A stretch of 64,000 bases of DNA, from the NCBI GenBank assembly GCA_026713825.1, contig JAPONS010000108.1:7585-71584 (forward strand). Reading direction: 5' to 3'. Source of the DNA: Chloroflexota bacterium. Lineage in GTDB: Bacteria; Chloroflexota; Dehalococcoidia; Lucifugimonadales; UBA1127. Every line of letters starts with the position of its first letter. Positions within the stretch are counted from its first letter, which is position 1. Below, piece by piece: positions 477 to 53,845 of the stretch. The notes below the pieces were generated by a model, which ran no database searches, was not told where the DNA came from, and saw only the letters and a list, made by a program, of their open reading frames with translations. The translations under genes and the position numbers were made by a program.

Positions 477-480
477 GGCA

Positions 481-1452
481 TCACCGTACCGGAGCGTCTT
501 GAATGCGGTAGTCGAAGTACGTCGCGGACACCAGGTCGTGCAAGTCGCGGCAGTGCTGGTATGCCTCGTTCAACAGCGGCTCCGGATTGTGATGCCCGTC
601 CCACTCGTACTTCACCAACGCCGAGACCCGTCCCGCCAGCCGCCTCAGGTCCTCGCTCGCGGCCGCGTTCGGCCCCGGCCCCAGCGATTCCAGCGCCTCC
701 TCCACGTGGCCCAGCATGCGGCTTAGCGAGTTCGGCAGATGGCTGTCCGTCGACAGCAGGTCCAGCACCTGTCCCGGTTCCACCTGCACGGCATACCGCA
801 CGACGTACGCGTCGAACGCGTGGTACAGCCGCAGCAGCGTCTCCCAGTCCCCGTCAAAGGAATCGTCTGCCAGCCGTGAAAGCTGCAGTTGCGTGAGGAA
901 CAGTGACGTCGTCAGCTGCGCCTTCTCGATGGCCCGGCCAAGGCGGATGAAGGACCAGTTCTCGTCGCGGTACATCGTGTCCGCGGCTGCCCCGCTAAAC
1001 GCCGAGATTGCGCCCGCCGTCTCGTTGTAGAACGTCTCCGGCGACGTCCGCCAGATGTCCCGTATGCCCATTCTCTGTAAACGCAAATACGGCAGGGTCA
1101 GTCCCAGCCACATCTCGCCGGTGATGCACTGCCGCATCTGCCGCGCGTTCTCCCGCCCCCCCGCGCAGCAGCTCCACACCGACTCCGGGTGCATCCGCTC
1201 GAACGTCAGGTCCTCCGCCAGTGTGTACGAGTCGAACAGCAGCCCCTCGTCCGACTCCAGCACGCCGATGTCGCCCCACGGCGGCGTCCGCTCCATCGTG
1301 CCGTAGATGCGGCTCCACCCGAAGTGCACCTCGCGGAATGGCCGGTCAACCATCGCCTCCATCTGCAGCGCCATCATGCGGCACAGGTGCTCCGCCCGCG
1401 CCAGGTAGCGGCTCATCCAGTACAGGCCCTGCGCGCTCCTCACCAGTATCAT
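481..1452 (-). CDS. alpha-E domain-containing protein (COG2307 type)
   Basis: 323 aa. The N-terminus RSAQGLYWMSRYLARAEHLCRMM matches the conserved alpha-E start (LYWMSRYLERAE). It directly follows the ATP-grasp gene with a 1-nt gap. Confidence 0.8.
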   Translation of the reverse strand: MILVRSAQGLYWMSRYLARAEHLCRMMALQMEAMVDRPFREVHFGWSRIYGTMERTPPWGDIGVLESDEGLLFDSYTLAEDLTFERMHPESVWSCCAGGRENARQMRQCITGEMWLGLTLPYLRLQRMGIRDIWRTSPETFYNETAGAISAFSGAAADTMYRDENWSFIRLGRAIEKAQLTTSLFLTQLQLSRLADDSFDGDWETLLRLYHAFDAYVVRYAVQVEPGQVLDLLSTDSHLPNSLSRMLGHVEEALESLGPGPNAAASEDLRRLAGRVSALVKYEWDGHHNPEPLLNEAYQHCRDLHDLVSATYFDYRIQDAPVR

Positions 1453-1453
1453 C

Positions 1454-2923
1454 TCAGTCCTCCAGCACCCACAGGTCCTTGCCCCCGCCGCCCTGACTGC
1501 TGTTCACGACAAGGCTGCCCTCACGCAGCGCGACGCGGCAGAACGCCCCCGGCACCGTCCGCGTCTCGCGCCCCGTCAGCATGAACGGCCGCAAGTCGAC
1601 GTGCCGCGGCTCGAAGCGCCCGTCGATCAGGCACGGCGCCCGCGACAGCGCCAGCGTCGGCTGCGAGATGAAGTCTGCCGGGTTGGCCCGCATCTCCTCC
1701 GCGTACGCCTCCCGCTCCGCCTTCGACGCGTGTGGCCCGACGAGCATCCCGTACCCACCCGACCCGCCGACGCGTTTCACCACCAGCTTGTCCAGGTTGT
1801 CCAGTGTGTACTCCAGCCCTTCGGGCCGTCGGCAGAGTGTCGTCTCGACGTTTTGCAGCAGCGGCTCCTCGCCCAGGTAGTAGCGCACCATGTCCGGCAC
1901 GTACGCATAGACGCTCTTGTCGTCCGCGACGCCCGTTCCCGGCGCGTTTGCCAGCGTCACGTTGCCCAGCCGGTACGCGTGCATCAGCCCCGGCACGCCC
2001 AGCAGCGAGTCCGGCCTGAACACAAGCGGGTCCAGGAAGTCGTCGTCCACGCGCCGGTAGATGACGTCGACACGCCGCAGCCCCGAAGTCGTCCGCGTGT
2101 ACACAAAGCCGTCGTTGACCACAAGGTCGCGCCCCTCGACAAGCTGCGCGCCCAGCTCGCCCGCAAGGAACATGTGCTCGTAGAACGCCGAGTTGTAGAT
2201 CCCCGGCGTCAGCAGCACCAGCGACGGGTCAGACTGCCCCCGCGGCGCAAGCTCCCGCAGCGTCTCCCGCAGGAGCCGTCCGTAGTGCTCAACATCCCGC
2301 ACCCGCGAGCTCCGGTACACCCGTCGAAGTCCCGCCTTCACCGCCTTCCGGTTCGCGATCATGTACGACACGCCGGAAGGCACCCGCAGGTTGTCCTCCA
2401 GCACGAAGAAGCCGTCGTTGGTGCGGACCATGTCGGTGCCGCAGACGGCCACCCACACGCCCAGCGGCGGCTCCATGCCCCGCATCTCGACGCGGTACTG
2501 CGGGCACCCGCGCACCACGTCGACGGGTATGACGCCGTCCCGCACGATGCGTCCTTCGCCGTACACGTCGCTCAGGAAGCGGTTCAGCGTCGTCACCCGT
2601 TGCACCAGCCCCCGCTCGAGAAACTCCCACTCGGCGGCGGCGATGATGCGAGGCACGCAGTCGACGGGGATGATGCGCTCCTCCGCCTCCTCGTCGCCGT
2701 AAACCGTGAAGGTTATCCCCTCCGTCGAGAATGAGTGCGTCACCCGCTCCTGTATCCCGCCCAGCTCCTCCTGCGAAAGCGCCGTCAGCGCCTCGTACAG
2801 CGGCCGGGAGCCCTCTCTCGGCTCGCCGGCGTGCAGGAACATCTCATCGAAGATGCCCGGGGCCAGGTTGTAGTTGGAGAAGTCCATGCCAGTCTCATTC
2901 TCTGTTCTGGCTGAGCCTGTCAA
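1454..2923 (-). CDS. circularly permuted type-2 ATP-grasp protein (COG2308 type)
   Basis: 489-aa ORF with coherent composition. The sequence is typical of this family (…YNSAFYEHMFLAGELG…DDFLDP…VTLANAPGTGVADDKS…) and it is operonic with the alpha-E gene. Confidence 0.8.
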   Translation of the reverse strand: MTGSARTENETGMDFSNYNLAPGIFDEMFLHAGEPREGSRPLYEALTALSQEELGGIQERVTHSFSTEGITFTVYGDEEAEERIIPVDCVPRIIAAAEWEFLERGLVQRVTTLNRFLSDVYGEGRIVRDGVIPVDVVRGCPQYRVEMRGMEPPLGVWVAVCGTDMVRTNDGFFVLEDNLRVPSGVSYMIANRKAVKAGLRRVYRSSRVRDVEHYGRLLRETLRELAPRGQSDPSLVLLTPGIYNSAFYEHMFLAGELGAQLVEGRDLVVNDGFVYTRTTSGLRRVDVIYRRVDDDFLDPLVFRPDSLLGVPGLMHAYRLGNVTLANAPGTGVADDKSVYAYVPDMVRYYLGEEPLLQNVETTLCRRPEGLEYTLDNLDKLVVKRVGGSGGYGMLVGPHASKAEREAYAEEMRANPADFISQPTLALSRAPCLIDGRFEPRHVDLRPFMLTGRETRTVPGAFCRVALREGSLVVNSSQGGGGKDLWVLED

Positions 2924-3046
2924 AGCCCGCGCCTTTGCCTTCTACTTAGCTGCACCAGTATACCGATTGTGCAATCCACCACGCCACGCTATGTATGGGC
3001 AAAGGCCGCCCACCCTTACCCCCCACTCCCTCTCCCCCGCCTACTC

Positions 3047-3172
3047 ATACCGGCGAATAGCTTGCCCCATACTCCGATACGGGGCAGGTATCCAGAGACC
3101 CTGCGGCCAACGGCATCCGTTATTCTCAGGCTTACTCACACCGCCATTCCGGCGAATGCCGGAATCCAGGGG
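3047..3172. repeat. cluster of short palindromic intergenic (REP-like) elements
   Basis: attccggcgaatgccggaatccagggg (3146-3172) and a partial copy at 3047-3097. The same hairpin unit (ccggc-gaa/aaa-gccgg + tatccag) recurs at 5088-5116 and 9871-9896. Confidence 0.6.
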
Positions 3173-3218
3173 CCAGGCAACGCGGCCCGCTTGTCCCCCC
3201 GCCGCACCTCCCCGTATC

Positions 3219-3917
3219 ATGGGCGATGCGCCCCGTCGCAAACCGGCAGTCGCATTGTGGGAGGACATCGTGGACTCGAAGGCCTTCGTCGCGGAGCTCG
3301 TCGGCATGGTGGAAGATTTCTGCCGCACCTTGGACGACGCTCCGCCCGCATACAGCTACATCCCCCTGTCGACCGACGACCAGCGCGTCCACGTCATGAA
3401 GAGCCGCCTCTTCAACGAGCAGCGCGCCGCCGACCTCTATGGCTCATGGCTCCGCACGACGCCCGAATTTGACGTGAAATTGCTGATGGCCGAGTCCGCC
3501 CACGAGGAGATGGAACACGCGGAAATCCTGTCTGGACGCATCCGGGACCTCGGCCACGACCCCTTCGACTACCGTCCGCTGCCCGCGCAGATGGCGATGT
3601 TCAACGCCATCGAGGGGCTGAGCGACACCTGCCAGCGCATCGCCGGGTTCGCCCTCGCGGGCGAGTCCGTGGCGACGTACCTCATCATGAAGTCCCTGGA
3701 CGCCGACTCCGTCCCGGACTGGATCAAAGCCCCCTACCGCCGCATCGCCGAGGATGAGGTGGGCCACGGCAGCGCCCCCCGGCAGGTCCTCATAGACCAC
3801 GCCACCACGCCCGAGCGGCAGGACGCCGCCCGCCGCGCCGTCGCCATGCGCCTCGTCCTCTTTCGCGAGTACCTCGCCAGCCTCGACCGGTGGGTGCTCG
3901 GCGACGGCCCGTGGTAA
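3219..3917 (+). CDS. ferritin-like (di-iron carboxylate type) domain protein
   Basis: The track ORF 2874..3917 is trimmed to the ATG at 3219, because the upstream part translates REP-like repeats. Contains ExxH-type pairs (ESAHEEMEHAEIL ; IAEDEVGHG) typical of ferritin-like four-helix bundles. Confidence 0.5.
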   Translation: MGDAPRRKPAVALWEDIVDSKAFVAELVGMVEDFCRTLDDAPPAYSYIPLSTDDQRVHVMKSRLFNEQRAADLYGSWLRTTPEFDVKLLMAESAHEEMEHAEILSGRIRDLGHDPFDYRPLPAQMAMFNAIEGLSDTCQRIAGFALAGESVATYLIMKSLDADSVPDWIKAPYRRIAEDEVGHGSAPRQVLIDHATTPERQDAARRAVAMRLVLFREYLASLDRWVLGDGPW

Positions 3918-3988
3918 TCCAATAATCCGTTCGCCCAGAGCTTGTCGGAGGGCGACTGAAACGACCGTCCACACTAAAGGAGGAAACC

Positions 3989-4957
3989 ATGCACGCAATC
4001 CAAATGGCGGAGGTCGGCGGCCCGGAGGTCATGAAGTACGTGGAGTTGCCGGACCCCGAGCCGGGCCCCGGTCAGGCCCTCGTCGAGATCAAGGCCGCCG
4101 GCGTCAACTACACCGACGTCTACTCCCGCTCCGGCTCCAACCACCCCGCGGCCCTGCCCGCCATCCCCGGTATCGAGGCCGCCGGCGTCGTCCTCAAGCT
4201 CGGTGAGGGCGTCAACCAGGTGGCCGTCGGCGACCGAGTTGCCTACTCCAGCGGCCCGGGCTCCTACGCCGAGATCAACGCCGTCCCGGCATGGCGCCTC
4301 ATGCCCATCCCGGACGAGCTGACCTTTGAGGAGGGCGCCGCCGCCATGCTGCAGGGCATGACCGCCCAATACCTCGTCTCCGACTGCTTCCCAATCAAGC
4401 CCGGCGACATAGCCCTCGTCCACTCCGGCGCGGGCGGCGTTGGCCGCCTCCTCATCCAGATGGCCAAGCTCAAGGGCGCCGAGGTCATCACTACCGTCTC
4501 CACCGGCGAGAAGGTGGAGATCGCCAAGGCATGCGGCGCAGACCACGTCGTCATGTACACGCAGGAGAGCTTCTCCGAGGCCGTCAAGCGCATCACGGAT
4601 GGGAAGGGCGTCCAGGTCGCCTACGACGCCGTCGGCGCCACAACCTTCGATGAGAGCATCGCGTCGTTGGCTGTCCGAGGGTACATGGTCGCCTACGGGC
4701 AGGCCTCCGGCCCCGTGCCGCCCGTCCCCCTCGCGACGCTGAACCCAAAGTCGCTCTTCCTGACGCGCCCAACCCTCGTCAGCTACACGCTCAACCGCGA
4801 CGAGATAGCCATGCGCTCAGGCCAGGTGTTCGAGTGGATCAGGTCGGGCGACCTCAAGCTCAGCATCTCGCAGACCTTCGCCCTCAGCGACGCCCCGGAG
4901 GCGCACCGCCAGTTGGAGGGCCGCCTGACCACGGGCAAGCTCCTGCTGAAGCCGTAG
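3989..4957 (+). CDS. NADPH:quinone oxidoreductase / zeta-crystallin-like medium-chain dehydrogenase
   Basis: 322 aa. MHAIQMAEVGGPEVMKYVELPDPEPGPGQALVEIKAAGVNYTDV… and the nucleotide-binding VHSGAGGVGRLLIQMAK motif. RBS aaggagg lies upstream. Confidence 0.8.
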   Translation: MHAIQMAEVGGPEVMKYVELPDPEPGPGQALVEIKAAGVNYTDVYSRSGSNHPAALPAIPGIEAAGVVLKLGEGVNQVAVGDRVAYSSGPGSYAEINAVPAWRLMPIPDELTFEEGAAAMLQGMTAQYLVSDCFPIKPGDIALVHSGAGGVGRLLIQMAKLKGAEVITTVSTGEKVEIAKACGADHVVMYTQESFSEAVKRITDGKGVQVAYDAVGATTFDESIASLAVRGYMVAYGQASGPVPPVPLATLNPKSLFLTRPTLVSYTLNRDEIAMRSGQVFEWIRSGDLKLSISQTFALSDAPEAHRQLEGRLTTGKLLLKP

Positions 4958-23941: not shown

Positions 23942-25825
<1,884 letters not shown>

Positions 25826-25837
25826 GCCACAAGGTTT

Positions 25838-25870
25838 CTCCCCCATAGTAGGGGAGGTTTAGGATGGAGG
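25838..25870. repeat. REP-like element (ggggaggtttaggatgg family)
   Basis: ctcccccatagtaggggaggtttaggatggagg is related to 9699-9735 and 12836-12870. Another common repeat motif follows (gctgagcttgtcgaagcac, compare 9815-9850). Confidence 0.55.
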
Positions 25871-26040
25871 CCCCGTCCCCCACCCGCGCTGGGCCTGCCC
25901 CGGCCGTTCGTGCTGAGCTTGTCGAAGCACAAGGCCTGTTCACCCTGAGGGAAATCGAAGGGCGAACGGGCTACTTGGCATGTTGCCGTCTGGGCAGGAA
26001 CGCAGAGGACGGAGTAGCCGCAAAACCCGAGAAATCGCCT

Positions 26041-27467
26041 GGATAGCTGCTTGCCCATACTGCGAGGAGCCTTTATCCTACATCATAGAATGAATGTGCT
26101 ATCCGTAGAGCGTGAATGAAGCAGCAGAAGGCCCAGATCATCCAATTGCAGCCGACCGAGGAGCAGCGCGTCTACTTTGCCCGCGCCTCCGGTATTGCCC
26201 GCCTTGCCTTCAACTGGGCACTGGACTGGTGGAACGAGCAATACAAACTCCACAAGGAGGAGGGAGCGCCCAGGCCAAACCGAGTCAACACCTGGAAAGC
26301 CTGGTGCGCCCACAAGCAGGCTTGTAAAGATGAGCGTCCCTGGCTGTACGAGGTCTCGTCGGATGTGCCCAAGTGGGTGATCTATGAGTCGCTGCCCAGA
26401 GCGTTCGCCAACTGGTGGAATCCCAAGACCCGGCAAGGACCGCCCAATTTCAAGAGCAAGCGCACCGCCCGCCGGGTTTTTGTGGGACAGGACTCCTGCA
26501 AGCCCGCCAACTTCCGCCATCGCGGCATCCGGCTGGCGAAGTTGGGGTGGGTGCGCTGCCGCTCCCAACTGCGCTGGCCGGCGAGCCAGGTCAGGCGCGT
26601 CACCGTCTTTGAGCAAGCCGGCAAGTGGTATGCCTCCATCCTGTTTGAGGACCCGGACTACACCCCGCCCGTCCACGAGAACCAAGCGGGCGCGGTGGGC
26701 GTGGACCTGGGTTCCCGCAAGCTGGCCGTGGCGTACGACGGGGAATCCTTCCAGCAGTGGGAGAACCCCAAGGCCCTGGATGGCGCGCTGCGCCGGTTGC
26801 GCCGCTGGCAGCGGAGGGCCGCCCGCCGCGGGGTGCGCGACAGCAAGCGGCGGGTGCTGGAGGTCACCCGCCGCCTTCGGAAGGCCAACAGCCGCATCGC
26901 CCGGCTCCACAAGCGGGTGGCGGACATCCGCCGTTGGCACGGGCACAACGTCTCCAACGCCTTGACGCGGGACTACGCCGTCGTCGGGACGGAGGACCTC
27001 AATGTCAAGGGCATGATGCGTTCGGCTAAGGGAACGGTGGAGAATCCAGGCAAAAACGTCAAGGCAAAGTCGGGTTTGAATAGAAGTGTGGCCGACGCCG
27101 GCATGGGGGAGTTGCTGCGCCAGATTGACTACAAGGCGCACTGGCGCGGCGGGGAGCGCCGCCAGGTGGGGCGCTTCTTCCCCTCCTCCAGGACGTGCAG
27201 CGACTGCGGGTACAAGCACGACGGGCTGCAGGCCCGCGAGCATTGGGCTTGCCCCTTCTGCGGCGTCGTCCACGACCGGGACGAGAACGCCGCCGTTAAC
27301 ATCTACAGAGAAACGGTAGGGGGAAGCACTCCCGAACCGGCGGACTTCGGGCCGCGAACGCCCGTGGAGTCCATGGCCTCTGCTCAAGGTCAGCTACGGC
27401 TGCTCGAGTAAGCTGGGACAGTGAAGCGGGAACCATAACCGCGCGTTAGGGCGCCTTTCGCGTTAGG
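26041..27467 (+). mobile_element. putative tnpB-only IS200/IS605-family (IS1341-like) element; ends not determinable
   Basis: Contains only a TnpB ORF, with no tnpA. The 3' tail (…gacagtgaagcgggaacc…) resembles the region where omega/reRNA scaffolds lie in such elements. The inverted pair ggatagc (26041) / gctatcc (26098) upstream could belong to a left-end structure. The boundaries given are guesses. Confidence 0.3.
26116..27411 (+). CDS. tnpB: TnpB-family RNA-guided RuvC endonuclease (OrfB_IS605 / IS200-IS605 accessory protein type)
   Basis: 431 aa. N-terminal IQLQPTEEQRVYFARASGIARLAFNWALDWW (OrfB N-terminal HTH-like). RuvC-I GVDLGSRKLAV, RuvC-II VVGTEDLNVKGM, Zn finger CSDCGYKHD…WACPFCG, RuvC-III HDRDENAAVNI. 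All catalytic acidic residues appear present. Confidence 0.9.
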   Translation: MKQQKAQIIQLQPTEEQRVYFARASGIARLAFNWALDWWNEQYKLHKEEGAPRPNRVNTWKAWCAHKQACKDERPWLYEVSSDVPKWVIYESLPRAFANWWNPKTRQGPPNFKSKRTARRVFVGQDSCKPANFRHRGIRLAKLGWVRCRSQLRWPASQVRRVTVFEQAGKWYASILFEDPDYTPPVHENQAGAVGVDLGSRKLAVAYDGESFQQWENPKALDGALRRLRRWQRRAARRGVRDSKRRVLEVTRRLRKANSRIARLHKRVADIRRWHGHNVSNALTRDYAVVGTEDLNVKGMMRSAKGTVENPGKNVKAKSGLNRSVADAGMGELLRQIDYKAHWRGGERRQVGRFFPSSRTCSDCGYKHDGLQAREHWACPFCGVVHDRDENAAVNIYRETVGGSTPEPADFGPRTPVESMASAQGQLRLLE

Positions 27468-27912
27468 GGTGTCCCCGTACGCGCGGGGGTGCTTGGAGCA
27501 GCCTCCATCCACTCCAATTCCTTCATCTGGTGTCCCCGTACGCGCGGGGGTGCTTGGGAGTACATGTGGCGGCATATGCGGATGCTGACGGTGTCCCCGT
27601 ACGCGCGGGGGTGCTTGGACCCGCACCCCCTTCCCCCAGAACATCAAGACGGTGTCCCCGTACGCGCGGGGGTGCTTGGTAGTAGCAGGTCAGGTCGCGG
27701 TAGTCGGACGAGGTGTCCCCGTACGCGCGGGGGTGCTTGACGACCTACACGGAGAAGGCAGGGCGCCGCGCCGGTGTCCCCGTACGCGCGGGGGTGCTTG
27801 GGGAGAGAGGCATGACCACACAGGAGCAGACCCGGTCGCGGGGGTGCTTGTCTTCCGCGCTTGGCGCCCGTCAGTGGCAAAGCGGTGTCCCCGTACGCGC
27901 GGGGGTGCTTGG
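27468..27912 (+). CRISPR. CRISPR array, 8 repeats / 7 spacers, type I-E-like repeat geometry
   Basis: Repeat GGTGTCCCCGTACGCGCGGGGGTGCTTGG (29 nt) starts at 27468, 27529, 27590, 27651, 27712, 27773, 27834 and 27884. The period is exactly 61 nt and spacers are 32 nt. Repeat 7 carries an 11-nt internal deletion (GGT^CGCGGGGGTGCTTG). Repeat 5 ends in A and repeat 7 in T. The fold is stem CCCCGT/GCGGGG, tetraloop ACGC and an 8-nt 3' tail, the same architecture as the E. coli I-E repeat. All spacers are unique. Confidence 0.92.
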
Positions 27913-27973: not shown

Positions 27974-28306
27974 ATGGCCGGGCCAACAAAGCAAAGAGCC
28001 ATAGAGCTACTGCAAATATCTCTTGACGCCATACCAGGATTGAAAGACGTAAAGCACAATACGCCTGAAGTTGATCCATGGCGTAGGAACACCCGTGTCA
28101 CTATTCAGAACGTGTTTGAAGGATCCCAATCTCATGTTCGGGAGTTTACAAGAATCTGGCTAGGGGAAAATTACTCCGAAAGCGACTCCTTTTACCAGGA
28201 TCGGCACATAAAGAGACTGGAAGCATCAGCTTCCATACTCCAATCAATGATCAGTGAAATTGAAAACTTCTGGCCGGAAGACATTCAAGAAACCAACTCT
28301 CAGTAA
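27974..28306 (+). CDS. hypothetical 110-aa protein (helical, no recognisable family)
   Basis: RBS ggaggt 7 nt upstream. AT-richer codon usage than the flanks. Ends 24 nt before the TIR-like gene, so probably co-transcribed. Confidence 0.55.
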   Translation: MAGPTKQRAIELLQISLDAIPGLKDVKHNTPEVDPWRRNTRVTIQNVFEGSQSHVREFTRIWLGENYSESDSFYQDRHIKRLEASASILQSMISEIENFWPEDIQETNSQ

Positions 28307-28330: not shown

Positions 28331-28774
28331 ATGGGACGGAAAGTCTTCCTCATTCACGGCCGCAATCACGGTACCAGAGACACCGTGGCGCGGTTCTTGG
28401 AGAAGCTGCAAATAAAGGTAGTCATTATGATGGAGCAGCCCAACCAGGGTCGGACTTTGATTGAAAAGCTTGAAGGCAATGCCGACACCGACTTCGCCAT
28501 AGCGCTCTTGACGCCCGACGACGAAGGGGGGCTGAAAGGCGGGGTGCAGAAGGCTCGCAGCAGGCAAAACGTAATACTTGAGTTGGGCTACTTCATGGGG
28601 CGATTAGGGAGAAACAGAGTGTGTGCCTTGGTCCAAGGTGACGTTGAGATACCAACAGATTACTACGGTGTCGTATACATAGACTTTGACGACTCAAACG
28701 CTTGGCAACAACAGCTCATAGGAGAACTCAAGGCTGCACGGTTCAGCATCGACGCCAACCGTGCCTTCACATAG
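28331..28774 (+). CDS. stand-alone TIR-like nucleotide-binding domain protein (COG4271 / CAP12-PycTIR-type TIR-like family)
   Basis: 147 aa. KVFLIHGRNHGTRDTVARFLEKL…EQPNQGRTLIEKLE…DFAIALLTPDD…SRQNVILELGYFMGRLGRNRVCAL…PTDYYGVVYIDFD follows the family pattern known from CBASS/Pycsar-type effectors, including the ELGYF Glu. Confidence 0.75.
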   Translation: MGRKVFLIHGRNHGTRDTVARFLEKLQIKVVIMMEQPNQGRTLIEKLEGNADTDFAIALLTPDDEGGLKGGVQKARSRQNVILELGYFMGRLGRNRVCALVQGDVEIPTDYYGVVYIDFDDSNAWQQQLIGELKAARFSIDANRAFT

Positions 28775-28791: not shown

Positions 28792-29958
28792 TCACGCCCC
28801 CGCCGACAACCCTTGCAGTGGAAACCCCTCCCGCCGCAGATCCTCGACGCTTGCTCTTGCGTAGTCCTGCACCCGCGCCGACACCTCCGGCGGCAGTTGC
28901 GCCTGCTCCGGGTCGTCGAGGCGATCTACGCCGTGGGTATGCGCAAAGGCGGGCGGGGCTGTGTCCGGCCACTCTTGGCCGAGCATGACGCCGTAGGCGC
29001 GGGTCCAGGCGCGCATTACTGCGCCGATGTCGTAGCCTCCACCCCCGAGCGCAAGCCAGCGCCCGGGTGATAGCCCGGCCAGTTCCCGGACCACCTGCGT
29101 GTACCCCTGCACCGTCAGGCGGAGGTGGGTGATGGGGTCCAGGACGTGCGTGTCTATGCCGAGCTGGGTAACCAGGACGTCCGGCTTGAAGGCTTGCACC
29201 ATTGGGGGCACCACCTCACGGAAGGCCCACAGGTAGGTCTCATCGTTCGTGTAGGGGAAGAGGGGGACGTTCACGGCGTAGCCGCGGCCCGCCCCTGTGC
29301 CTATCTCGTTGGTGAAGCCGGTGCCCGGGAAGAGGAACTCGCCGGACTCGTGGAAGGAGATGGTGAGCACCTGGTCTGTGTCGAAGAAGCCCACCTGGAC
29401 GCCGTCGCCGTGGTGACAGTCTATGTCCACGTAGGCGACGCGCGCCCCCGCCGCGACCATGTGCCTGATGGCGATGACCGGGTCGTCGAAGATGCAGAAG
29501 CCTGACGCGTGGCCGGGCATGGCGTGGTGCAGGCCGCCGGAGAAGTTCACTGCCGCCGAGCACCGGCCGCTCAGGAGTTCCTCCGCCGCCGTGAGCGACG
29601 CCCCCGTCGTCCAGAGGGCGGCGTCGTACATGCCCTGGTAGACGGGGTTGTCTCCCATGCCGCCCGCGGCGAAGTTGAAGAGGGCCGCCTCCTCCAGCCG
29701 CTCTCCGCGGCTTAGGGCCGCCACAGCCTCCACATACGCGGGCGAGTGGTAGGTGTGCACCTCCTCGACGCGGGCCTGCCGCGGCTCCATGAGCGACGCA
29801 TTGGCCAGCGTGAACGCTCCGAGCGCCTCCAGGAGCTCGTAGGTGTGGCGGAGGCGGTAGGGGCGGAAGACGTGGGTCTCGCTGAGGACGTGGCGCGTCA
29901 GCCGGTCGTGGTAGACGAAGGCTGCGGTGCGCGCGTCGTCGGGCGGGGGCAGGCTCAT
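28792..29958 (-). CDS. histone deacetylase-family enzyme (AcuC/acetoin-utilisation-like deacetylase)
   Basis: …GGLHHAMPGHASGFCIFDDPVIAI…YVDIDCHHGDGVQ…SFHESG… are the Zn-site and active-site motifs. Start set to the ATG at 29958 (MSLPPPDD…). The track start at 30114 would overlap the tRNA gene. Confidence 0.85.
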   Translation of the reverse strand: MSLPPPDDARTAAFVYHDRLTRHVLSETHVFRPYRLRHTYELLEALGAFTLANASLMEPRQARVEEVHTYHSPAYVEAVAALSRGERLEEAALFNFAAGGMGDNPVYQGMYDAALWTTGASLTAAEELLSGRCSAAVNFSGGLHHAMPGHASGFCIFDDPVIAIRHMVAAGARVAYVDIDCHHGDGVQVGFFDTDQVLTISFHESGEFLFPGTGFTNEIGTGAGRGYAVNVPLFPYTNDETYLWAFREVVPPMVQAFKPDVLVTQLGIDTHVLDPITHLRLTVQGYTQVVRELAGLSPGRWLALGGGGYDIGAVMRAWTRAYGVMLGQEWPDTAPPAFAHTHGVDRLDDPEQAQLPPEVSARVQDYARASVEDLRREGFPLQGLSAGA

Positions 29959-30072
29959 GGCGCGGAGGATACGCGGCCCGCCGACGTACGCGCAAGGGCG
30001 CCGCGTCAGTGGACGGTTGGGGTCAGGAGGGTGTATAGTACATGTTGACCCCTCACCACTGAGGGCTACCGT

Positions 30073-30147
30073 CGCGGGGTGGAGCAGCGGCAGCTCGTTG
30101 GGCTCATAACCCAAAGGTCGGAGGTTCGAATCCTCCCCCCGCTACCA
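30073..30147 (+). tRNA. tRNA-Met (CAT), initiator type
   Basis: Manual cloverleaf: acceptor CGCGGGG/CCCCGCT, D arm GAGC-AGCGGCA-GCTC, anticodon arm TTGGG-CTCATAA-CCCAA, variable AGGTC, T arm GGAGG-TTCGAAT-CCTCC, then A and encoded CCA. Initiator hallmarks are three G:C pairs closing the anticodon stem, A11:U24 and an unpaired 1:72 (C1/U72). Confidence 0.9.
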
Positions 30148-30217: not shown

Positions 30218-31369
30218 CTAGCCCCAAAGCTCTGCGCTTGCGATGCGGGCGCCCTCTGACATTGCCCTGAACTTCTCCCAGCACACCTTTGCGTGGCCGA
30301 CCCGCGAACCGATGCCGCAGTCCGTGCCGGCCATGAGGCTCTCCTTGCCGACGACGTCCGCGTAGCGCAGCAGCCGCTGGGCTACGAGCTGCGGGTGCTC
30401 GATGAAGTCGCTGGCATGGCCGATGACGCCGGGGATGAGAACCTTGCCGTCGGGCAGCTTGATGTCGCGCCATACCGCCCACTCGTGCTCGTGCGCGGGG
30501 TTGGAGGCCTCGATGGAGTAGCCGACGGACTTCACTTTCAGGATCAGGTCCGCGATGTCGGCCAGCGGAATGTCGTACATGTGCGGCCCCTTGTAGCTCC
30601 CCCAGCACGTGTGAAAGCGGACCTTCTCCTCAGGGATGTCGCCGATGGCGTGGTTCAAGGCCTCAATGCGGAGGTTGGCGAACTTCCTGTATTCCTCGAC
30701 GCTCATGCCGGGGTTCATTTGCCAGCCGTCGGGCAGGTCCGGGTCGTCGATCTGCAGCAGGAAGCCGGCGTCGACGATGGCTTTGTACTCCTCATGCAGC
30801 GCGTCGGCAAGCGCGAAGAGGAATGCCTCGTCCGAGGGGTAGTACTCGTTGGCGAGCCAGTGCTCGACGGTCCCGGGTGTGACGGCGGGCAGAAAGGCTT
30901 CCTCCGGCGTGTGGCCCTGCAGCCCGGCGTTGAAATTGTCAATGTCCGCCTGAATTCCCGCCTGTCCCGTGTAGGTGATGGGCCCGACGACGAAGAAGGA
31001 TGGGTTGGAGCCAGCGCCTGTGAAGCCCCCTCGCTGTGCGAAGTAGCCCGAGAACTCCTGCATGTCCCGACCGTTTATGCCGGGAGGCGCCGGGCCGTCC
31101 TTCGGCGTGCGCCGCTCAATGCCGCCCATGCGCTCGCCGATGTAGCTGGTGAACGTGACCTTGCTCACCTCACCGTCGTTGACGCTGTCGATGCCCGTCT
31201 CAATCTGCAGACCCACGTTCTCCGCGATGACAGAGCGGATCGTATCGGTCATCGCCGGCTCGTTCACCGGTTCTCCGCGGCTCTTGGCCACGACCATGTC
31301 AAGGAGCTCGCGCGGCCTTGGCAGGGTACCGGCGTGCATCGTTCGGATGTGGTCTGTGCTACGGATCAT
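30218..31369 (-). CDS. cobalamin-independent methionine-synthase-like (MetE C-terminal/UROD-fold, COG0620) protein, paralog 1
   Basis: Start at MIRSTDHIRTMHAGTLPRP with RBS gaggagg. …RFHTCWGSYKGPH…GYSIEASNPAHEHEW…AGTDCGIG… carries Zn-ligand-like His/Cys. 383 aa. Confidence 0.7.
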   Translation of the reverse strand: MIRSTDHIRTMHAGTLPRPRELLDMVVAKSRGEPVNEPAMTDTIRSVIAENVGLQIETGIDSVNDGEVSKVTFTSYIGERMGGIERRTPKDGPAPPGINGRDMQEFSGYFAQRGGFTGAGSNPSFFVVGPITYTGQAGIQADIDNFNAGLQGHTPEEAFLPAVTPGTVEHWLANEYYPSDEAFLFALADALHEEYKAIVDAGFLLQIDDPDLPDGWQMNPGMSVEEYRKFANLRIEALNHAIGDIPEEKVRFHTCWGSYKGPHMYDIPLADIADLILKVKSVGYSIEASNPAHEHEWAVWRDIKLPDGKVLIPGVIGHASDFIEHPQLVAQRLLRYADVVGKESLMAGTDCGIGSRVGHAKVCWEKFRAMSEGARIASAELWG

Positions 31370-31442
31370 GGCTCCTCCTCTATGGCGCAAATCCAGCGTC
31401 TACGCGGCTGGAAATGCCTGGCTGCCCTGCAGTGGCCCGGTC

Positions 31443-32594
31443 CTAGCCCCAGAGCTCCGCGCTTGCGATGCGGGCGCCCTCAGACATTGCCTTGAACTTC
31501 TCCCAGCACACCTTGGCATGGCCCACGCGGGCGCCGATGCCGCAGTCCGTGCCGGCCATGATGTTCTCCTTGCCCACGACGTCGGCGTAGCGCAGCAGCC
31601 GCTGCGCCACGAGCTGCGGGTGCTCGATGAAGTCACAGGCGTGGCCGATGACGCCGGGGATGAGCACCTTGCCGTCGGGCAGCTTCACGTCGCGCCACAC
31701 CGTCCACTCGTGCTCGTGCGCGGGGTTGGAGGCCTCGATGGAGTAGCCGACTGCCTTCACCTTCAGGATGAGGTCAACGATGTCCACCAAGGGGATGTCG
31801 TGCTTGTGGGGCCCCTTGTAGCTGCCCCAGCAGGTGTGGAAGCGGACTTTCTCCTCCGGGATGTCGCCGATGGCGTGGTTCAGCGCGTCTATCCGCAACT
31901 CGGCGAACTTCTTGTATTCCGGGACGGTCATGTCCGGGAACATCTGCCAGGCGTCGGGCAGGTCGGGATCGTCGATCTGGAGCAGGAAGCCCGCGTCGAC
32001 GATGGCCTTGTACTCCTCATGCAGGACGTCGGCGAGGGCGTAGAGGTAGGCCTCGTCCGTGGGGTAGTACTCGTTGGCGAGCCAGTGCTCGACGGTGCCG
32101 GGAGTAACCGCCGGCAGGAAGGTCTCCTCCGGCGAGTAGCCCTCTAGCGCCGCATTGAAGTTGTCGATGTCCGTCTGAATGGCGGCCTGACCCGTGTACG
32201 TGAGCGGCCCAACCACGAAGACCGAGGGGTTGGAACCGGCCCCGGTGAAACCGGGCTTGCCATCGAAGTAACCAGGGAAATCGATTTCGTCGCGCCCATT
32301 GACACCTGGAGGCGCAGGGCCATCCGCAGGCTTTCGTTGCTCTATTCCGCCCAGGCGCTCTCCGATGTAGTGGGTGAAGCTGAACTTGTGCACCTCGCCG
32401 TCGTTGATGCTGTCGATGCCGGTCTCGATCTGCAGGCCCACGTTCTCGCGGATGACGTCCCTGACCAGGCTGGTCAGAGCAGCCTCGTCCACAGGTTGGC
32501 CTATCATCTTGGAGAAGGTCATGTTGAAGAGCTCCTGCGGCCTGGGCAGGGTGCCTGCGTGCATAACGCGAATGCGGTCTGTGCTTCTGATCAT
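31443..32594 (-). CDS. MetE-like (COG0620) protein, paralog 2
   Basis: Start at MIRSTDRIRVMHAGTLPRP with RBS ggagg. Collinear with 30218..31369 at about four-fifths amino-acid identity by eye, with long identical nucleotide runs near the 3' ends. Confidence 0.7.
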   Translation of the reverse strand: MIRSTDRIRVMHAGTLPRPQELFNMTFSKMIGQPVDEAALTSLVRDVIRENVGLQIETGIDSINDGEVHKFSFTHYIGERLGGIEQRKPADGPAPPGVNGRDEIDFPGYFDGKPGFTGAGSNPSVFVVGPLTYTGQAAIQTDIDNFNAALEGYSPEETFLPAVTPGTVEHWLANEYYPTDEAYLYALADVLHEEYKAIVDAGFLLQIDDPDLPDAWQMFPDMTVPEYKKFAELRIDALNHAIGDIPEEKVRFHTCWGSYKGPHKHDIPLVDIVDLILKVKAVGYSIEASNPAHEHEWTVWRDVKLPDGKVLIPGVIGHACDFIEHPQLVAQRLLRYADVVGKENIMAGTDCGIGARVGHAKVCWEKFKAMSEGARIASAELWG

Positions 32595-32735
32595 GTTGTC
32601 CTCCGCAGTGGGCACAGGCCCACCTTTGGTGTATTCCCTGTGCCCCATGAAAGTACATCGGCGTAACTGCCGCCGCAAGCCCACACTGGGAATAGTGAGT
32701 ATCCGTATCAGAGCAACGCAGGCCGTCGCCCGCCC

Positions 32736-50056: not shown

Positions 50057-50151
50057 TACGGGCCTATTGTCGCTGACGGAATGAGCGGTGTCAGCAGTGA
50101 GTGGTGGGGTATAATAGCGCGTTGCGGTGGTGGGGAGGCGAAGGGAGACGC

Positions 50152-52620
50152 ATGGGAAGCAGACTGACCGGCGAAGGGCCGGCGAAGGTGTACGCGGCGG
50201 CGGAAAAGTGGGTGGACGCCGCCCTGCGCACCGACGACTCGCTGTTCACGCCAGGAAAGCCGGTGTGGACACTGGACGTGCTGGGGGAGGTGCGGGAGAA
50301 CTTCTTAGATCGACCGAATGAAGGTAGTGGGAGCTTCATGAATAGGCTGCAGGCGCAGCTTGACGGCTGCTCGCCTAAGGCTTATCAGCTTGTGGGTGAA
50401 GTGATGTACGTCCATTTCCTCATCACCGACAAGGGCATGAACCGAAACACCAAGGTGAACTACATTAACCAAGTGCTTGGCTGGGCTTCTCCTCCCTTCA
50501 CCATGCCCCAAGAGGCTGCTGATGGATTCGGCATCGGCCTTATGGGTACTGGACAGAGCTTTCACAATCACCGCCCGTACCACATCGGCTTCATTCTGGA
50601 ATTTGTAGAACACTGGAAGCAACAGCCAGCAAATGAGCAGCAATCGTTGCTGGATAACCCGTGGGCGTTTAAGGACTTCCTTTGGCAGACACCGCTCACC
50701 AGCGAATTGCTGAAGAATGACAAGAACAAGCCCACATTACAGAGACTAGCACTGTTGCATCTCATATTCCCGGACACATTCGAGGCAATCGTATCTACAG
50801 CGCACAGGCAGAAGATATTCTCTGCGTTCGCCGGACTGGCTGACGAACCCGACCAGGACATCGACCGGCGGTTACAGCAGCTTCGCCGACACTTTGAGGC
50901 TAAGTATGGATCGCCCAATCACCTTTTTTATCGCGAGGCGATTAAGAGCCAGTGGGACGGGACCGAACCACATAACCCCGACCCTAGCCCTTGGGACGTA
51001 ATTGTCAAGCGGGCAAAGGCATACGTAACCACTGGCAATTTAGAGAAGGATGAGATCAATTACAAATTAGATATCGCGCGGAAACTAGCGGAAGCACGGG
51101 AGGCAGTCCTCACCGATGGGGGTGACTGGGCAGGGCTAGTTAAAAGAGGAATTGTTGGCAACCTTGTCTTCAATATCCAACTATCCAGGTTCCGCACTTG
51201 GGTTGACAGCTTACCGCAGCAAGCCCTCAATGCGCTGAAGACACTCTGGCGGCAAGATGATTCGCCCATTGAGGAACGCATTCGTAAATTCAGTGCTTTA
51301 CTTCCCAAAGCAAATGTACCTGACGCCGAACATCCCATTGGCATCACTGGCTCTGGCACCCGTGCAAACGTGATCTCAGTCCTTCTTATGGCGTTAGGCG
51401 CAGAAGACCACCCGCCCTTCCGCATGGGCGTCTTTGACAAAGCCTATGAATTGACGGGGTTCGCGAAGCCTGGAACTTCCAGCGATGAGGTCGAACTATA
51501 CACCCATGCCATGAAGTTCCTGAACAAGTTTATTGAAGAAGCTGGTGAGCGCGGTCTCCCGATACACAACCTCCTTGAAGCACAGTCGATTCTTTGGATG
51601 ATTGGAGATTGGGAAGAAGATGAAGACAACGGCAAAGGTGGTGGGCTTGAGAATAGCCCCACCCTCGCAAGTCTCGCCACTGATCTCTACTTACACCCTG
51701 ACTTCCTGAGGGACATCGTGCTGCTCCTAGAAGAGAAGAAACAGATCATCTTCCAGGGCCCGCCAGGGACAGGAAAGACCTTTCTTGCGCGTGAGCTTGC
51801 CAAGCATCTGGCTGACGGTGATGACGGGCGGGTGACGCTAGTGCAATTTCACCCGTCGTATGCGTATGAGGACTTCGTGCAGGGTTTCCGTCCCGACCCC
51901 GACGGCAGGGGTGGGTTCGCGCTGCGGGATGGGCCGCTGCTGCGGGCGGCTCGCGCTGCCCAACAGGACTTGGACGCAGCTAGAGCAGCAGGGCAGGACC
52001 CCGATAGCGCCAGCCGCCACTACCTCATCATTGATGAGATCAACCGAGGTAACCTCGGCAAGGTGTTCGGGGAACTGTACTTCCTGTTGGAGTACAGAGA
52101 CGAGGCCATGCGGCTCCAATACGCCGACACCGACTTCTCTCTGCCGCCCAACCTCTACATCATCGGCACCATGAACACTGCCGACCGTTCAATCGCGCTG
52201 GTGGATCTGGCGCTCCGGCGGCGGTTCTACTTCATGGACTTTCACCCGGATGAGGAGCCCATCAAGGGTGTCCTGCGCCGCTGGCTAGCGGCGAACGCGC
52301 CGGAGATGGAGTGGGCAGCGGACGTGGTCAACGCGGCGAACGAGAAGCTGAAGGACGACCGCCACGCGGCCATCGGGCCAAGCTACTTCATGCGGCCTGG
52401 CCTGGACGACGCGGCTGTGGAACGCATCTGGAAGCACAGCGTCCTGCCGTATCTGACCGAACGCCTCTATGAGAACGCCGAACGGCTCGCCGAGTTTGAC
52501 CTGAACAAGCTGCGGGCTGAGGTCGAGATCAGCAACGGCAACGCAGGCGGGAGCGGCCCGGCGGAAGCTGAGGAAGGCCCTGGTGATGCAGATGATGACG
52601 GTGGCGAGTCCAGTGCGTGA
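50152..52620 (+). CDS. mcrB: McrB-like AAA+ (GTPase-type) restriction subunit with a long N-terminal region
   Basis: ATG at 50152 follows RBS aagggag. The C-terminal module has FQGPPGTGKTFLA (Walker A), YLIIDEINRGNLGKVFGELYFLLEYR (Walker B and McrB signature), IIGTMNTADRS and LRRRF. The first roughly 500 aa are unassigned and partly AT-richer. Confidence 0.8.
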   Translation: MGSRLTGEGPAKVYAAAEKWVDAALRTDDSLFTPGKPVWTLDVLGEVRENFLDRPNEGSGSFMNRLQAQLDGCSPKAYQLVGEVMYVHFLITDKGMNRNTKVNYINQVLGWASPPFTMPQEAADGFGIGLMGTGQSFHNHRPYHIGFILEFVEHWKQQPANEQQSLLDNPWAFKDFLWQTPLTSELLKNDKNKPTLQRLALLHLIFPDTFEAIVSTAHRQKIFSAFAGLADEPDQDIDRRLQQLRRHFEAKYGSPNHLFYREAIKSQWDGTEPHNPDPSPWDVIVKRAKAYVTTGNLEKDEINYKLDIARKLAEAREAVLTDGGDWAGLVKRGIVGNLVFNIQLSRFRTWVDSLPQQALNALKTLWRQDDSPIEERIRKFSALLPKANVPDAEHPIGITGSGTRANVISVLLMALGAEDHPPFRMGVFDKAYELTGFAKPGTSSDEVELYTHAMKFLNKFIEEAGERGLPIHNLLEAQSILWMIGDWEEDEDNGKGGGLENSPTLASLATDLYLHPDFLRDIVLLLEEKKQIIFQGPPGTGKTFLARELAKHLADGDDGRVTLVQFHPSYAYEDFVQGFRPDPDGRGGFALRDGPLLRAARAAQQDLDAARAAGQDPDSASRHYLIIDEINRGNLGKVFGELYFLLEYRDEAMRLQYADTDFSLPPNLYIIGTMNTADRSIALVDLALRRRFYFMDFHPDEEPIKGVLRRWLAANAPEMEWAADVVNAANEKLKDDRHAAIGPSYFMRPGLDDAAVERIWKHSVLPYLTERLYENAERLAEFDLNKLRAEVEISNGNAGGSGPAEAEEGPGDADDDGGESSA

Positions 52621-53845
52621 GCTTAACCTGACCGAGTACAAGCCAAGCGAGGCAACGCCACTGACCGCGCCAGAGCTTGCATCGCTCTTGTCGGCCCGCA
52701 AGCAGCTCGGTGTGTCTGTAGAGCCTGCGCAGAATCATCTGGGTGCGTATGTCGTCACGCCCGCCTCCACCGTCGGCGCCGTCGAAATCGACGGCCTCTC
52801 CGTCGTCATCAAGCCCAAGATCACCATGCAACAGGTGCTGTCTCTCGCCCTCTATGCCATGGATGCGGACAGTCGCTTTCATCTGCACCCCTTTGACTTT
52901 GCGGAGGAGGACGCGCTGCCGGACCTGCTGGCGCATGCGCTGGCACAGGCGGCGCAGCGGGCCTTCGCGCAGGGACTGCTGCACGGCTACCGGGCGGAAG
53001 AGGAATCGCTGTACGGCGTGCGGGGCCGCATCCGGTTTGACGACCAAGTGCGCCGCCGGTTCGGCCGCGCCCTGCCGATAGAGGCACGGTACGACGACTT
53101 CACAGATGACATCCTGGAGAACCGGCTGGTGAAGGCGGCGGCGGGCCAGCTGGCTATGATGCGGCTGCGCTCCCCGGCAGCGCGGCGAGGACTGGGATGG
53201 ATTGCCGGAACGCTCGCCAATGTCTCGCCCGTGGAGTATCCGCTCAACAACGTGCCGGAGGTGCGGTTCGACCGGCTGAACGAGCACTACCGGCAGGTGG
53301 TGACGCTGGCACGGCTGGTGCTGCGGCACACCGCCTACCAGTCGAGCCGGGGCGCGGTTCGGGCTATTGGCTTCTTGTTTGACATGAACGATGTCTTTCA
53401 GCGATTCGTGACGCGCGCGCTGAGAGGGAAGCTCCAGTTGTCCGAGCGTGCCTTCCCATCCGATAAGAAACTGCCCCAAAAGGTGACGCTGGACACGAGT
53501 GGACAACTGAACCTCTTGCCAGATCTGTCATGGTGGCAGGACGGTAAGTGCGTCTTTGTCGGAGACGCCAAGTACAAGCGCATCCTTGACGAGCGCGTTC
53601 CTAACGCTGATCTCTATCAACTTCTGGCCTACGCTACTGCCCTGAATCTTCCAAACGGGTTGCTCATCTATGCGGAGAGTGAAGCAAATGTTGCCTCTCA
53701 TACCGTCCGCTACGCCAACAAACAACTGGAGGTCACAGCGCTAGATCTCAATGGCAACCTAGACGATGTTCTAGAGCGAGTTGGGTATCTTGCTAACAGG
53801 GTATGCACACTTTCCATTTCAGGAAGCGTATCAGTCAGCATGTGA
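52583..53845 (+). CDS. mcrC: McrC-like PD-(D/E)xK nuclease subunit
   Basis: …VGAVEIDGLSVVIKPKI… (McrC N-terminal pattern) and …LLPDLSWWQDGKCVFVGDAKYK…LYQLLAYA… (D…D/E-x-K nuclease core). Overlaps the mcrB 3' end. The start is ambiguous among GTG 52583, ATG 52586 and ATG 52595. Confidence 0.8.
   Translation: MMQMMTVASPVRELNLTEYKPSEATPLTAPELASLLSARKQLGVSVEPAQNHLGAYVVTPASTVGAVEIDGLSVVIKPKITMQQVLSLALYAMDADSRFHLHPFDFAEEDALPDLLAHALAQAAQRAFAQGLLHGYRAEEESLYGVRGRIRFDDQVRRRFGRALPIEARYDDFTDDILENRLVKAAAGQLAMMRLRSPAARRGLGWIAGTLANVSPVEYPLNNVPEVRFDRLNEHYRQVVTLARLVLRHTAYQSSRGAVRAIGFLFDMNDVFQRFVTRALRGKLQLSERAFPSDKKLPQKVTLDTSGQLNLLPDLSWWQDGKCVFVGDAKYKRILDERVPNADLYQLLAYATALNLPNGLLIYAESEANVASHTVRYANKQLEVTALDLNGNLDDVLERVGYLANRVCTLSISGSVSVSM

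Follow-up and report, generated by a model that had tools for sequence, protein, structure and literature searches.

The window analysed here, a stretch of 64,000 nucleotides (nt) from a Chloroflexota bacterium of the Dehalococcoidia lineage (contig JAPONS010000108.1, positions 7,585 to 71,584 of the forward strand), contains a gene for a TnpB-like protein directly upstream of a CRISPR array. The effector gene (26116-27411, + strand) is predicted to encode a CRISPR-associated, TnpB-fold, RNA-guided nuclease of 431 amino acids (aa) with WED/REC, RuvC, and zinc-finger TNB domains. Its stop codon lies at 27409-27411, and the array (27468-27911, + strand), which runs in the gene's direction, begins after a gap of only 56 nt. 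The last 31 codons of the open reading frame (ORF) and this gap are predicted to encode a structured RNA of 153 nt (27315-27467, + strand), which resembles a tracrRNA or omega-RNA and runs from within the ORF to the first repeat. The genes grpE and dnaK are present upstream of the effector gene, and a gene for a Toll/interleukin-1 receptor (TIR) domain protein is present downstream. An earlier examination of the DNA, made without database searches (the sequence-only reading), had noted the gene, the array, and the 56-nt same-strand gap, and had offered two explanations: either a tnpB-only insertion sequence (IS) sits at the leader of the array, or a TnpB-sized effector draws its guides from the array.

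The ORF product matches the Pfam families HTH_OrfB_IS605, OrfB_IS605, and Cas12f1-like_TNB (the last covering residues 331-396), and NCBIfam names it TnpB (guided_TnpB, 264 bits). An alignment of 64 sequences, consisting of the effector and up to 63 relatives, places the RuvC triad and the zinc-finger cysteines in invariant or nearly invariant columns. The RuvC-I catalytic aspartate, D197 (codon 26704-26706, + strand), lies within the motif GVDLG, in an invariant column; it lines up with the catalytic region in both TnpB and Cas12n. The RuvC-II glutamate, E293 (26992-26994, + strand), lies within GTEDL and is likewise invariant, while the RuvC-III aspartate, D389 (27280-27282, + strand), occupies a nearly invariant column within HDRDEN. 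This last motif is of the DRDxN type, the class found in "typical" TnpBs (PMC10691335). The four cysteines of the CxxC...CxxC zinc finger in the TNB domain (C361, C364, C379, and C382; 27196-27261, + strand) are invariant. Thus, the previously reported TnpB ORF with its RuvC triad and zinc finger is confirmed both by Pfam and by the alignment.

An AlphaFold2 model of the effector has an overall predicted local distance difference test score (pLDDT) of 87.9. When this model is searched with Foldseek, the top match is ISDra2 TnpB [8H1J; template modelling (TM) score 0.83, target-normalised], followed by ISFba1 TnpB, and the sequence match to ISDra2 TnpB extends over the full length (1e-46). Cas12n of Rothia dentocariosa (RdCas12n; 9J09) is matched by phmmer at 5e-50 over residues 132-400 only, and the REC/WED lobe of that structure aligns with the effector model at a TM score of only 0.48. 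The ratio of nonsynonymous to synonymous substitution (dN/dS) between the effector and its relatives is 0.10-0.36. The effector is therefore an intact TnpB fold under purifying selection. The exception to the well-modelled structure is the C-terminal tail (aa 404-431; 27325-27408, + strand), which is predicted to be disordered (pLDDT <50) and whose codons coincide with the 5' portion of the scaffold.

The array has 33-nt spacers and 28-nt repeats with the unit GGTGTCCCCGTACGCGCGGGGGTGCTTG, giving a period of 61 nt. In length, orientation, and stem-loop it corresponds to a type I-E repeat, the core stem-loop being CCCCG-ACGCGC-GGGG; a scan for this core at 61-nt spacing finds more than 100 ordinary I-E arrays among the matches listed, in Streptomyces, Dehalococcoidia, and other bacteria. 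The bases TGCTT at the 3' end of each repeat (27490-27494 in the first) form the 3' strand of a predicted pseudoknot with the scaffold. The array had been counted as having eight repeats. Eight are indeed present, but only seven are full; the seventh in order (GGT-CGCGGGGGTGCTTG; 27834-27850, + strand) has an 11-nt internal deletion that removes the part predicted to pair with an anti-repeat in the scaffold. As the sequence-only reading had stated, there is no adjacent Y1 or serine transposase gene and no recognisable cas gene: Pfam detects no Cas family among approximately 45 ORFs distributed across the window, and neither type of transposase is present anywhere within it.

Gene and array among the relatives

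The locus was compared with the close homologs for which loci had been retrieved (L001-L006, L135, and L136), whose proteins are 37-97% identical to the effector. In all eight, as in the window, an array of the same repeat family with a 61-nt period lies on the same strand directly 3' of the gene; its start either overlaps the stop codon or falls 2-156 nt beyond it. The proteins of this group range from 390 to 457 aa, and their arrays reach up to 29 repeats. The repeats vary from locus to locus, although the 3' end GCTTG is kept everywhere but in L136, where it is TATCG. The nine loci represent eight different genomic contexts. Only L001 is syntenic with the window, being 95% identical over 18 kb with the effector at the same position; the neighbours of the other seven are unrelated and include, for example, aspartate decarboxylase/IleRS, ribosomal protein L21, DNA polymerase III alpha, and TGT. 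In a neighbour-joining tree, bootstrap support is 100/100 for a clade of the eight closest proteins. Thus, gene and array are inherited and transferred together.

Beyond this clade the association ends. No array is present beside the distant relatives (≤39% identity), which comprise 80 loci on viral contigs, five loci obtained by a metagenome scan, a Massilia TnpB (P0011), and the nearest neighbour in the tree (P0093), an array-less gene situated behind a serine recombinase in an IS607-type element.

These observations bear directly on the first of the two explanations, in which a tnpB-only IS200/IS605 element has inserted, by chance or through target preference, where leader and first repeat meet in an orphan I-E array to which it is functionally unrelated. 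Such an insertion would fit with the plain TnpB fold, the TnpB name given by NCBIfam, the I-E-like repeat, and the occurrence of mobile IS607-type relatives in the same communities. However, the pairing of gene and array is found in 9/9 loci and eight contexts, and the repeats vary in step with the protein. There is no TnpA or other transposase, no second copy of the effector gene within the 64-kb window, and no conserved or recognisable IS end; the gene occupies the same site in the 95%-identical relative, and it is followed by an array instead of a single flank. Identical tnpB copies whose right end abuts unrelated DNA, which had been suggested as the mark of a simple insertion, are absent from the window, and the genes of the eight retrieved relatives are all followed by an array. 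The mobile form is instead seen in the array-less relatives. Together with the covariation between scaffold and repeat described below, these findings refute an IS at the leader, which we regard as extremely improbable. The related suggestion that a foreign array was captured remains plausible, but such a capture would be old and would date back to the origin of the clade.

Another locus (L218, positions 1-4290), from the same sample as the Dehalococcoidia chromosome on which L005 is located, contains two IS607-type elements (serine recombinase plus tnpB), one of them cut short where the locus ends, and also a fragment of tnpB. Of the array-less relatives, the complete copy stands closest to the CRISPR-linked clade in the tree, and it has an omega-RNA match.

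The predicted scaffold and its pairing with the repeat

From about position 27315, the conservation of the nucleotide sequence disregards the reading frame. Stop codons fall at different points among the relatives: in L003, L004, and L006 the ORF ends 30-40 codons earlier, and yet the downstream bases can still be aligned. The disordered tail of the protein (residue 404 to the end) coincides with this conserved DNA. When the nine loci are aligned from 27315 to the end of repeat 1, RNAalifold together with pair counts yields a multi-stem consensus structure, to which one pseudoknot has been added. In this structure 90.5% of the cells are paired, compared with 36-49% in controls in which the partners are slid, and 22 pairs have changed on both sides, compared with 4-12 in the controls. 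None of 500 shuffles reaches the observed pairing values.

Two predicted contacts join the scaffold to the repeat. The first involves stem 1 (27315-27338, + strand), a hairpin whose loop, AAGCA (27324-27328), would form the 5' strand of the pseudoknot by pairing with UGCUU, the bases directly 5' of each spacer. Changes on both sides are seen in four of the five loop-repeat pairs. In L136, in which the repeat ends in UAUCG and the loop is GAUAA, GAUA can pair with UAUC; in L005 and L135, U can pair with G. The second contact involves an anti-repeat, CCGCGCGT (27439-27446, + strand), which is complementary to the middle of the repeat, ACGCGCGG. An anti-repeat at this junction had been proposed as something to look for, and the one found covaries with its partner: 89.7% of the cells in the helix are paired, with compensatory changes of C-G to U-A and of G-C to A-U. 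In L002, L004, and L005, the anti-repeat site is also the best partner for the repeat according to RNAduplex. An alternative arrangement, in which an extended duplex is formed between GAAGCACTCCCG and the 3' end of the repeat, was dropped, given that both RNAalifold and the structure of the RdCas12n guide favour the stem-1 hairpin with a loop pseudoknot.

A covariance model was built from 27315-27438 and its homologs, excluding the anti-repeat and the repeat. This model gives full-length matches at the 3' ends of approximately 33 array-less tnpB genes on viral contigs, with E values down to 5e-13, and it also matches the 3' ends of the Massilia TnpB gene and of the IS607 element. There is no match in Rothia, and in Streptomyces only one at E = 0.009. 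Within Rfam no family reaches its gathering score, and a permissive threshold gives only a chance-level match to Transposase-2 RNA (14.5 bits, E = 3.9). Because the model recognises the 3' ends of array-less tnpB genes, the clade appears to have kept the body of an ancestral omega-RNA, with the repeat supplying its guide-proximal end. Thus, 27315-27467 is, as judged from comparative sequence analysis, a structured RNA homologous to the omega-RNA of TnpB, which bears out the earlier impression that the tail of the ORF and the bases beyond it look like a scaffold. This homology and the covariation support a predicted splitting of the omega-RNA into a tracrRNA (the scaffold) and a CRISPR RNA (crRNA), the latter composed of repeat and spacer.

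The recurrent pairing of gene with array and the covariation of scaffold with repeat thus support the second explanation, that of a TnpB-sized effector with array-derived guides. The locus is probably a minimal type V-like CRISPR module without cas1 and cas2, in which a domesticated TnpB nuclease operates with an array and a split omega-RNA. Transcription would begin upstream of the gene and continue through the scaffold into the array. A candidate promoter region (TTGCCC ... TATCCT / TAGAAT; 26051-26091, + strand) is only weakly indicated; it falls in a block common to the window and L003 despite their unrelated contexts, and the other loci have TTGACA/TAGAAT-like boxes of their own. As a tracrRNA, the scaffold would pair with each repeat, through the anti-repeat with the middle of the repeat and through the loop of stem 1 with the last bases before the spacer. 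This pairing would rebuild a complete omega-RNA with the spacer as its guide. The protein, presumably as a monomer, would then bind DNA that matches the spacer and is flanked by a protospacer adjacent motif (PAM), and the RuvC residues D197, E293, and D389 would cut it, providing defence against phages or plasmids. New spacers could enter at the gene-proximal end of the array through a type I-E Cas1-Cas2 whose genes lie in another part of the genome. In the evolution of the module, a TnpB lineage of the IS605/IS607 type would have acquired an I-E-type array, after which the 3' handle of the repeat (GCTTG) would have changed so as to complement the loop of stem 1.

Several results weigh against such a module. 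The covariation is based on nine sequences, and the compensation within the pseudoknot comes mostly from the divergent L136. Single-sequence folding of 27315-27495 is unexceptional when compared with shuffles (z = -0.84), so that the argument rests on covariation. A consensus promoter scan detects nothing upstream of the effector gene, and for none of the nine loci is there an I-E cas operon within 10 kb. The array of the window includes a damaged repeat, and in L135 (5400-6906) the effector gene is apparently frameshifted in its N-terminal third, leaving a called ORF of 301 aa beside an intact array and scaffold. The frameshift may reflect decay or an error in a contig of 4x coverage; taken with the damaged repeat, it indicates that individual copies may be decaying. 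Finally, no protospacer was found in INPHARED (cultured phages) for 67 spacers, or in IMG/VR for the 24-nt prefixes of six spacers.

The missing viral protospacers, together with the existence of exapted TnpBs that are not nucleases, would also suit a protein that uses its guide to bind DNA or to regulate (as TldR and Cas12m do), or one that serves as a homing factor, instead of a defence nuclease. We consider this highly improbable: the RuvC triad and zinc finger are intact across the clade, the neighbours are defence genes, and the spacers are diverse, turn over quickly, and do not match the host locus. No spacer recurs in a second locus, and neither self-matches nor matches to the window itself were found.

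Classification and spacer supply

The best label for the defence module proposed here is a CRISPR-associated TnpB (type V-U / TranC-like) lineage of Dehalococcoidia-type genomes. Systems of this kind have already been published (Cas12n/V-U4, the V-U variants, TranC, and Cas12r). Consequently, the locus is a small new branch and possibly an independent lineage: a new member, not a new principle. The junction had been described as unexplained; this holds for standard annotation, which says "transposase", but not for the type of system.

TranC, or transposon-CRISPR intermediates (Jin et al., Cell 2025), and the V-U branches V-U6 to V-U45 of Altae-Tran et al. 2023 (PMC10691335) are described as TnpB-sized proteins (~300-600 aa), nested among TnpBs, with a downstream array, a split omega-RNA, and no adaptation genes. 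The present clade, for which a split omega-RNA is predicted, resembles them in protein size, in its place among TnpBs, and in its conserved array without adaptation genes, with arrays at 9/9 of its loci and at none of approximately 87 outgroup loci, the nearest outgroup being an IS607 element. However, LaTranC, the sole member with a solved structure, is distant from the effector (E = 3.5e-11). The TnpBs of ISDra2 and ISFba1 (8H1J, 8EXA, 8IAZ) provide the best structural match. They share with the effector its domain order, size, and DRDxN RuvC-III motif, and they likewise have an omega-RNA that overlaps the 3' end of the gene; the scaffold of the clade is homologous to those of array-less TnpBs. 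They differ in that the present locus shows no transposase, IS ends, or other sign of mobility, that an array replaces the single fixed guide, and that the repeat would provide the guide-proximal strand of the scaffold.

Cas12n is the system whose architecture is most similar, and the possibility that the locus encodes a short Cas12n ortholog (type V-N, formerly V-U4) and not a separate lineage has to be weighed. In the Rothia and Streptomyces loci, a TnpB-derived effector is followed on the same strand by an array without cas1 and cas2, having I-E-like repeats of 28-29 nt and a 61-nt period. The RuvC domain is intact, and the tracrRNA overlaps the 3' end of the ORF, where it encodes a disordered tail, and pairs with the repeat, as is computed here. 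In the solved single guide RNA (sgRNA) of RdCas12n, the loop of stem 1 pairs with positions -4 to -2 beside the guide, a pseudoknot that lengthens the stem, and the duplex of repeat and anti-repeat makes up stem 5 (PMC12216341). The same elements are predicted for the present scaffold: a stem 1, a pseudoknot to the bases beside the guide, and a stem formed by repeat and anti-repeat. Cas12n recognises a 5'-AAN PAM and cleaves double-stranded DNA as a monomer. Besides the similar architecture, an orthologous relationship would agree with the phmmer match to 9J09, with the best PADLOC model for the effector, which is Cas12u4, and with a size range of 400-700 aa given for Cas12n in the literature.

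However, the differences are considerable. Cas12n is about 540 aa (500-540), compared with 431 aa here, and its REC/WED expansions and N-terminal insertions are lacking from the effector. Identity to the effector is about 36% and is limited to the C-terminal 270 residues, and the fold is that of TnpB (TM 0.83) and not that of the Cas12n REC/WED lobe (TM 0.48). The handle of the Cas12n repeat is GGTTCC instead of GCTTG, and its hosts are Actinomycetota instead of Dehalococcoidia-type metagenome-assembled genomes (MAGs). Two apparent signs of membership were rejected. The Cas12u4 model of PADLOC scores the effector at 285 bits and the clade at 219-285, but array-less TnpBs at 282-365 and real Cas12n at 576; plain TnpB controls thus score equally or higher. 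A shared 16-aa insertion (core AKGTVENPGKNVKAKS, within RSAKGTVENPGKNVKAKSGLNR) is scattered across many TnpBs and is missing in half of the clade. The neighbour-joining tree joins the clade with Cas12n in 0/100 replicates, and the scaffold model that recognises omega-RNAs is silent in Rothia and gives only its weak match in Streptomyces. Given the TnpB-like fold, the Cas12u4 controls, the scattered insertion, and the tree, the effector is not filed as Cas12n, and orthology is judged unlikely.

The separate lineage might instead represent an exaptation independent of Cas12n, in which an unexpanded TnpB of the IS605/IS607 type took over a pre-existing I-E array, the 3' handle of the repeat (GCTTG) was rewritten to complement the loop of stem 1 and so replace the guide-proximal pseudoknot strand of the omega-RNA, and a I-E Cas1-Cas2 supplied spacers. 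This we put forward tentatively, as a serious possibility that falls somewhat short of an even chance.

Type I-E systems consist of arrays with a 29-nt palindromic repeat and 32-nt spacers beside a cse1-cse2-cas7-cas5-cas6e-cas1-cas2 operon. The I-E geometry of the present repeats had been taken as an argument against an effector that uses the array. This argument fails since Cas12n loci carry the same I-E-like arrays. Compared with true I-E arrays, such as that of L075, the repeats are similar in length, stem-loop sequence, orientation, and period, but the 3' handle is different, no cse1-cas2 genes are nearby, and an effector gene with its scaffold occupies the "leader" position. In L005, the first 21 nt of the repeat include 19 that are identical to those of Dehalococcoidia I-E repeats, and the 3' handle differs entirely; the window repeat shares only the stem-loop core with them. 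L075, a Dehalococcoidia MAG, has such repeats together with the full cse1-cse2-cas7-cas5-cas6e-cas1-cas2 operon.

An array of this kind could mainly serve a I-E Cascade encoded elsewhere, with the TnpB-like gene being a hitch-hiker or using only the first repeat-spacer transcript in the manner of a classical omega-RNA. The retained hairpin, of the type recognised by Cas6e, would permit the former, and the position of the anti-repeat just 5' of repeat 1 would permit a single guide folded in cis. However, the handle is GTGCTTG instead of ATAGACC, the handle of I-E repeats in this bacterial class, and it complements the scaffold loop, with compensation in L136. Furthermore, I-E genes are lacking near the nine loci, and up to 29 repeats are kept beside the gene. 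A role principally in Cascade function is therefore very unlikely.

The window and L001 effectors differ by a synonymous divergence (dS) of 0.04, yet the two arrays have 0 spacers in common. Degenerate repeats at the gene-distal end, as in the window, also occur in L001 and L003, which fits a leader on the gene-proximal side. The I-E-like repeats, the complete turnover of spacers between window and L001, and the degenerate distal repeats together point to acquisition at the gene-proximal end, and the comparison suggests that spacers are acquired in trans, most simply by I-E Cas1-Cas2. Adaptation by I-E or other type I modules has also been proposed for Cas12n/C2c9 and for Cas12r. In the Cas12r-CRISPR system of Thermus Lalka phages, spacers likewise enter beside the gene, and adaptation is proposed to occur via the I-E module of the host. 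However, Cas12r is a phage-encoded protein of 564 aa that is reported to be tracrRNA-free (bioRxiv 10.64898/2026.04.20.719267), whereas the genes of the present clade lie on chromosomes and share a conserved scaffold of tracr-like type.

The locus brings together the pieces of a transition from TnpB to Cas12: a transposon-like fold, an omega-RNA inside the 3' end of the gene, and a repeat that would serve as the last strand of the scaffold. Since the repeats appear to be of I-E origin, the locus bears on whether type V arrays arise by duplication of an omega-RNA segment or by capture of an array, and it also bears on how systems without Cas1-Cas2 continue to acquire spacers. If the exaptation was indeed independent, these proteins would be among the smallest natural CRISPR effectors, the clade would represent a second, convergent case in which a class 2 effector relies on the adaptation of class 1, and array capture, not omega-RNA duplication, would be shown as a route to type V. 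An effector of 390-431 aa with a scaffold of about 180 nt is in addition a candidate compact genome editor. Annotation pipelines call such genes "transposase" and such arrays "orphan".

Other features of the window

The immediate neighbour of the array (27974-28306 and 28331-28774, + strand) is a homolog of the PADLOC candidate defence system PDC-S35 and carries a C-terminal TIR domain of the CAP12/Pycsar type. In the syntenic L001 it is a single ORF of 266 aa, whereas in the window it is split by an in-frame TAA (28304-28306). The N-terminal ~120 codons do not align between window and L001 at the DNA level, although the flanks are 94-95% identical, and the GC content in this region falls to 0.54. 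A second defence locus, a McrBC-type restriction pair, is found in a lower-GC stretch at 50101-53845 (+ strand), where an 839-aa AAA_5 (McrB-like) ORF (50101-52620) overlaps a McrC ORF (PF10117; 52583-53845).

Downstream of the PDC-S35 homolog, a tRNA-Met (CAT) at 30073-30147 (+ strand) shares sequence with the 5' end of the longest ORF called at a gene of the histone-deacetylase family (28792-30114, - strand). Because of this overlap, the gene must in fact start further in; its L001 homolog has 388 aa. Tandem paralogs related to Meth_synt_2 follow at 30218-31390 and 31443-32684 (- strand); there are two in the window and three in L001 (13934-17539), and cross-matches between them are about 82% identical in DNA sequence.

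On the other side of the effector gene, the interval that separates it from dnaK contains a run of about 20 C residues in L001 (9715-9733), where the window has CTCCCCCATAG. This difference may stem from a polymorphism in the length of the homopolymer or from an artefact of assembly, the L001 contig having 5x coverage. The cumulative GC skew of the window reaches its minimum at the dnaK/effector boundary (~25000-26000) and rises thereafter; this pattern may be coincidental or may reflect a switch related to replication.

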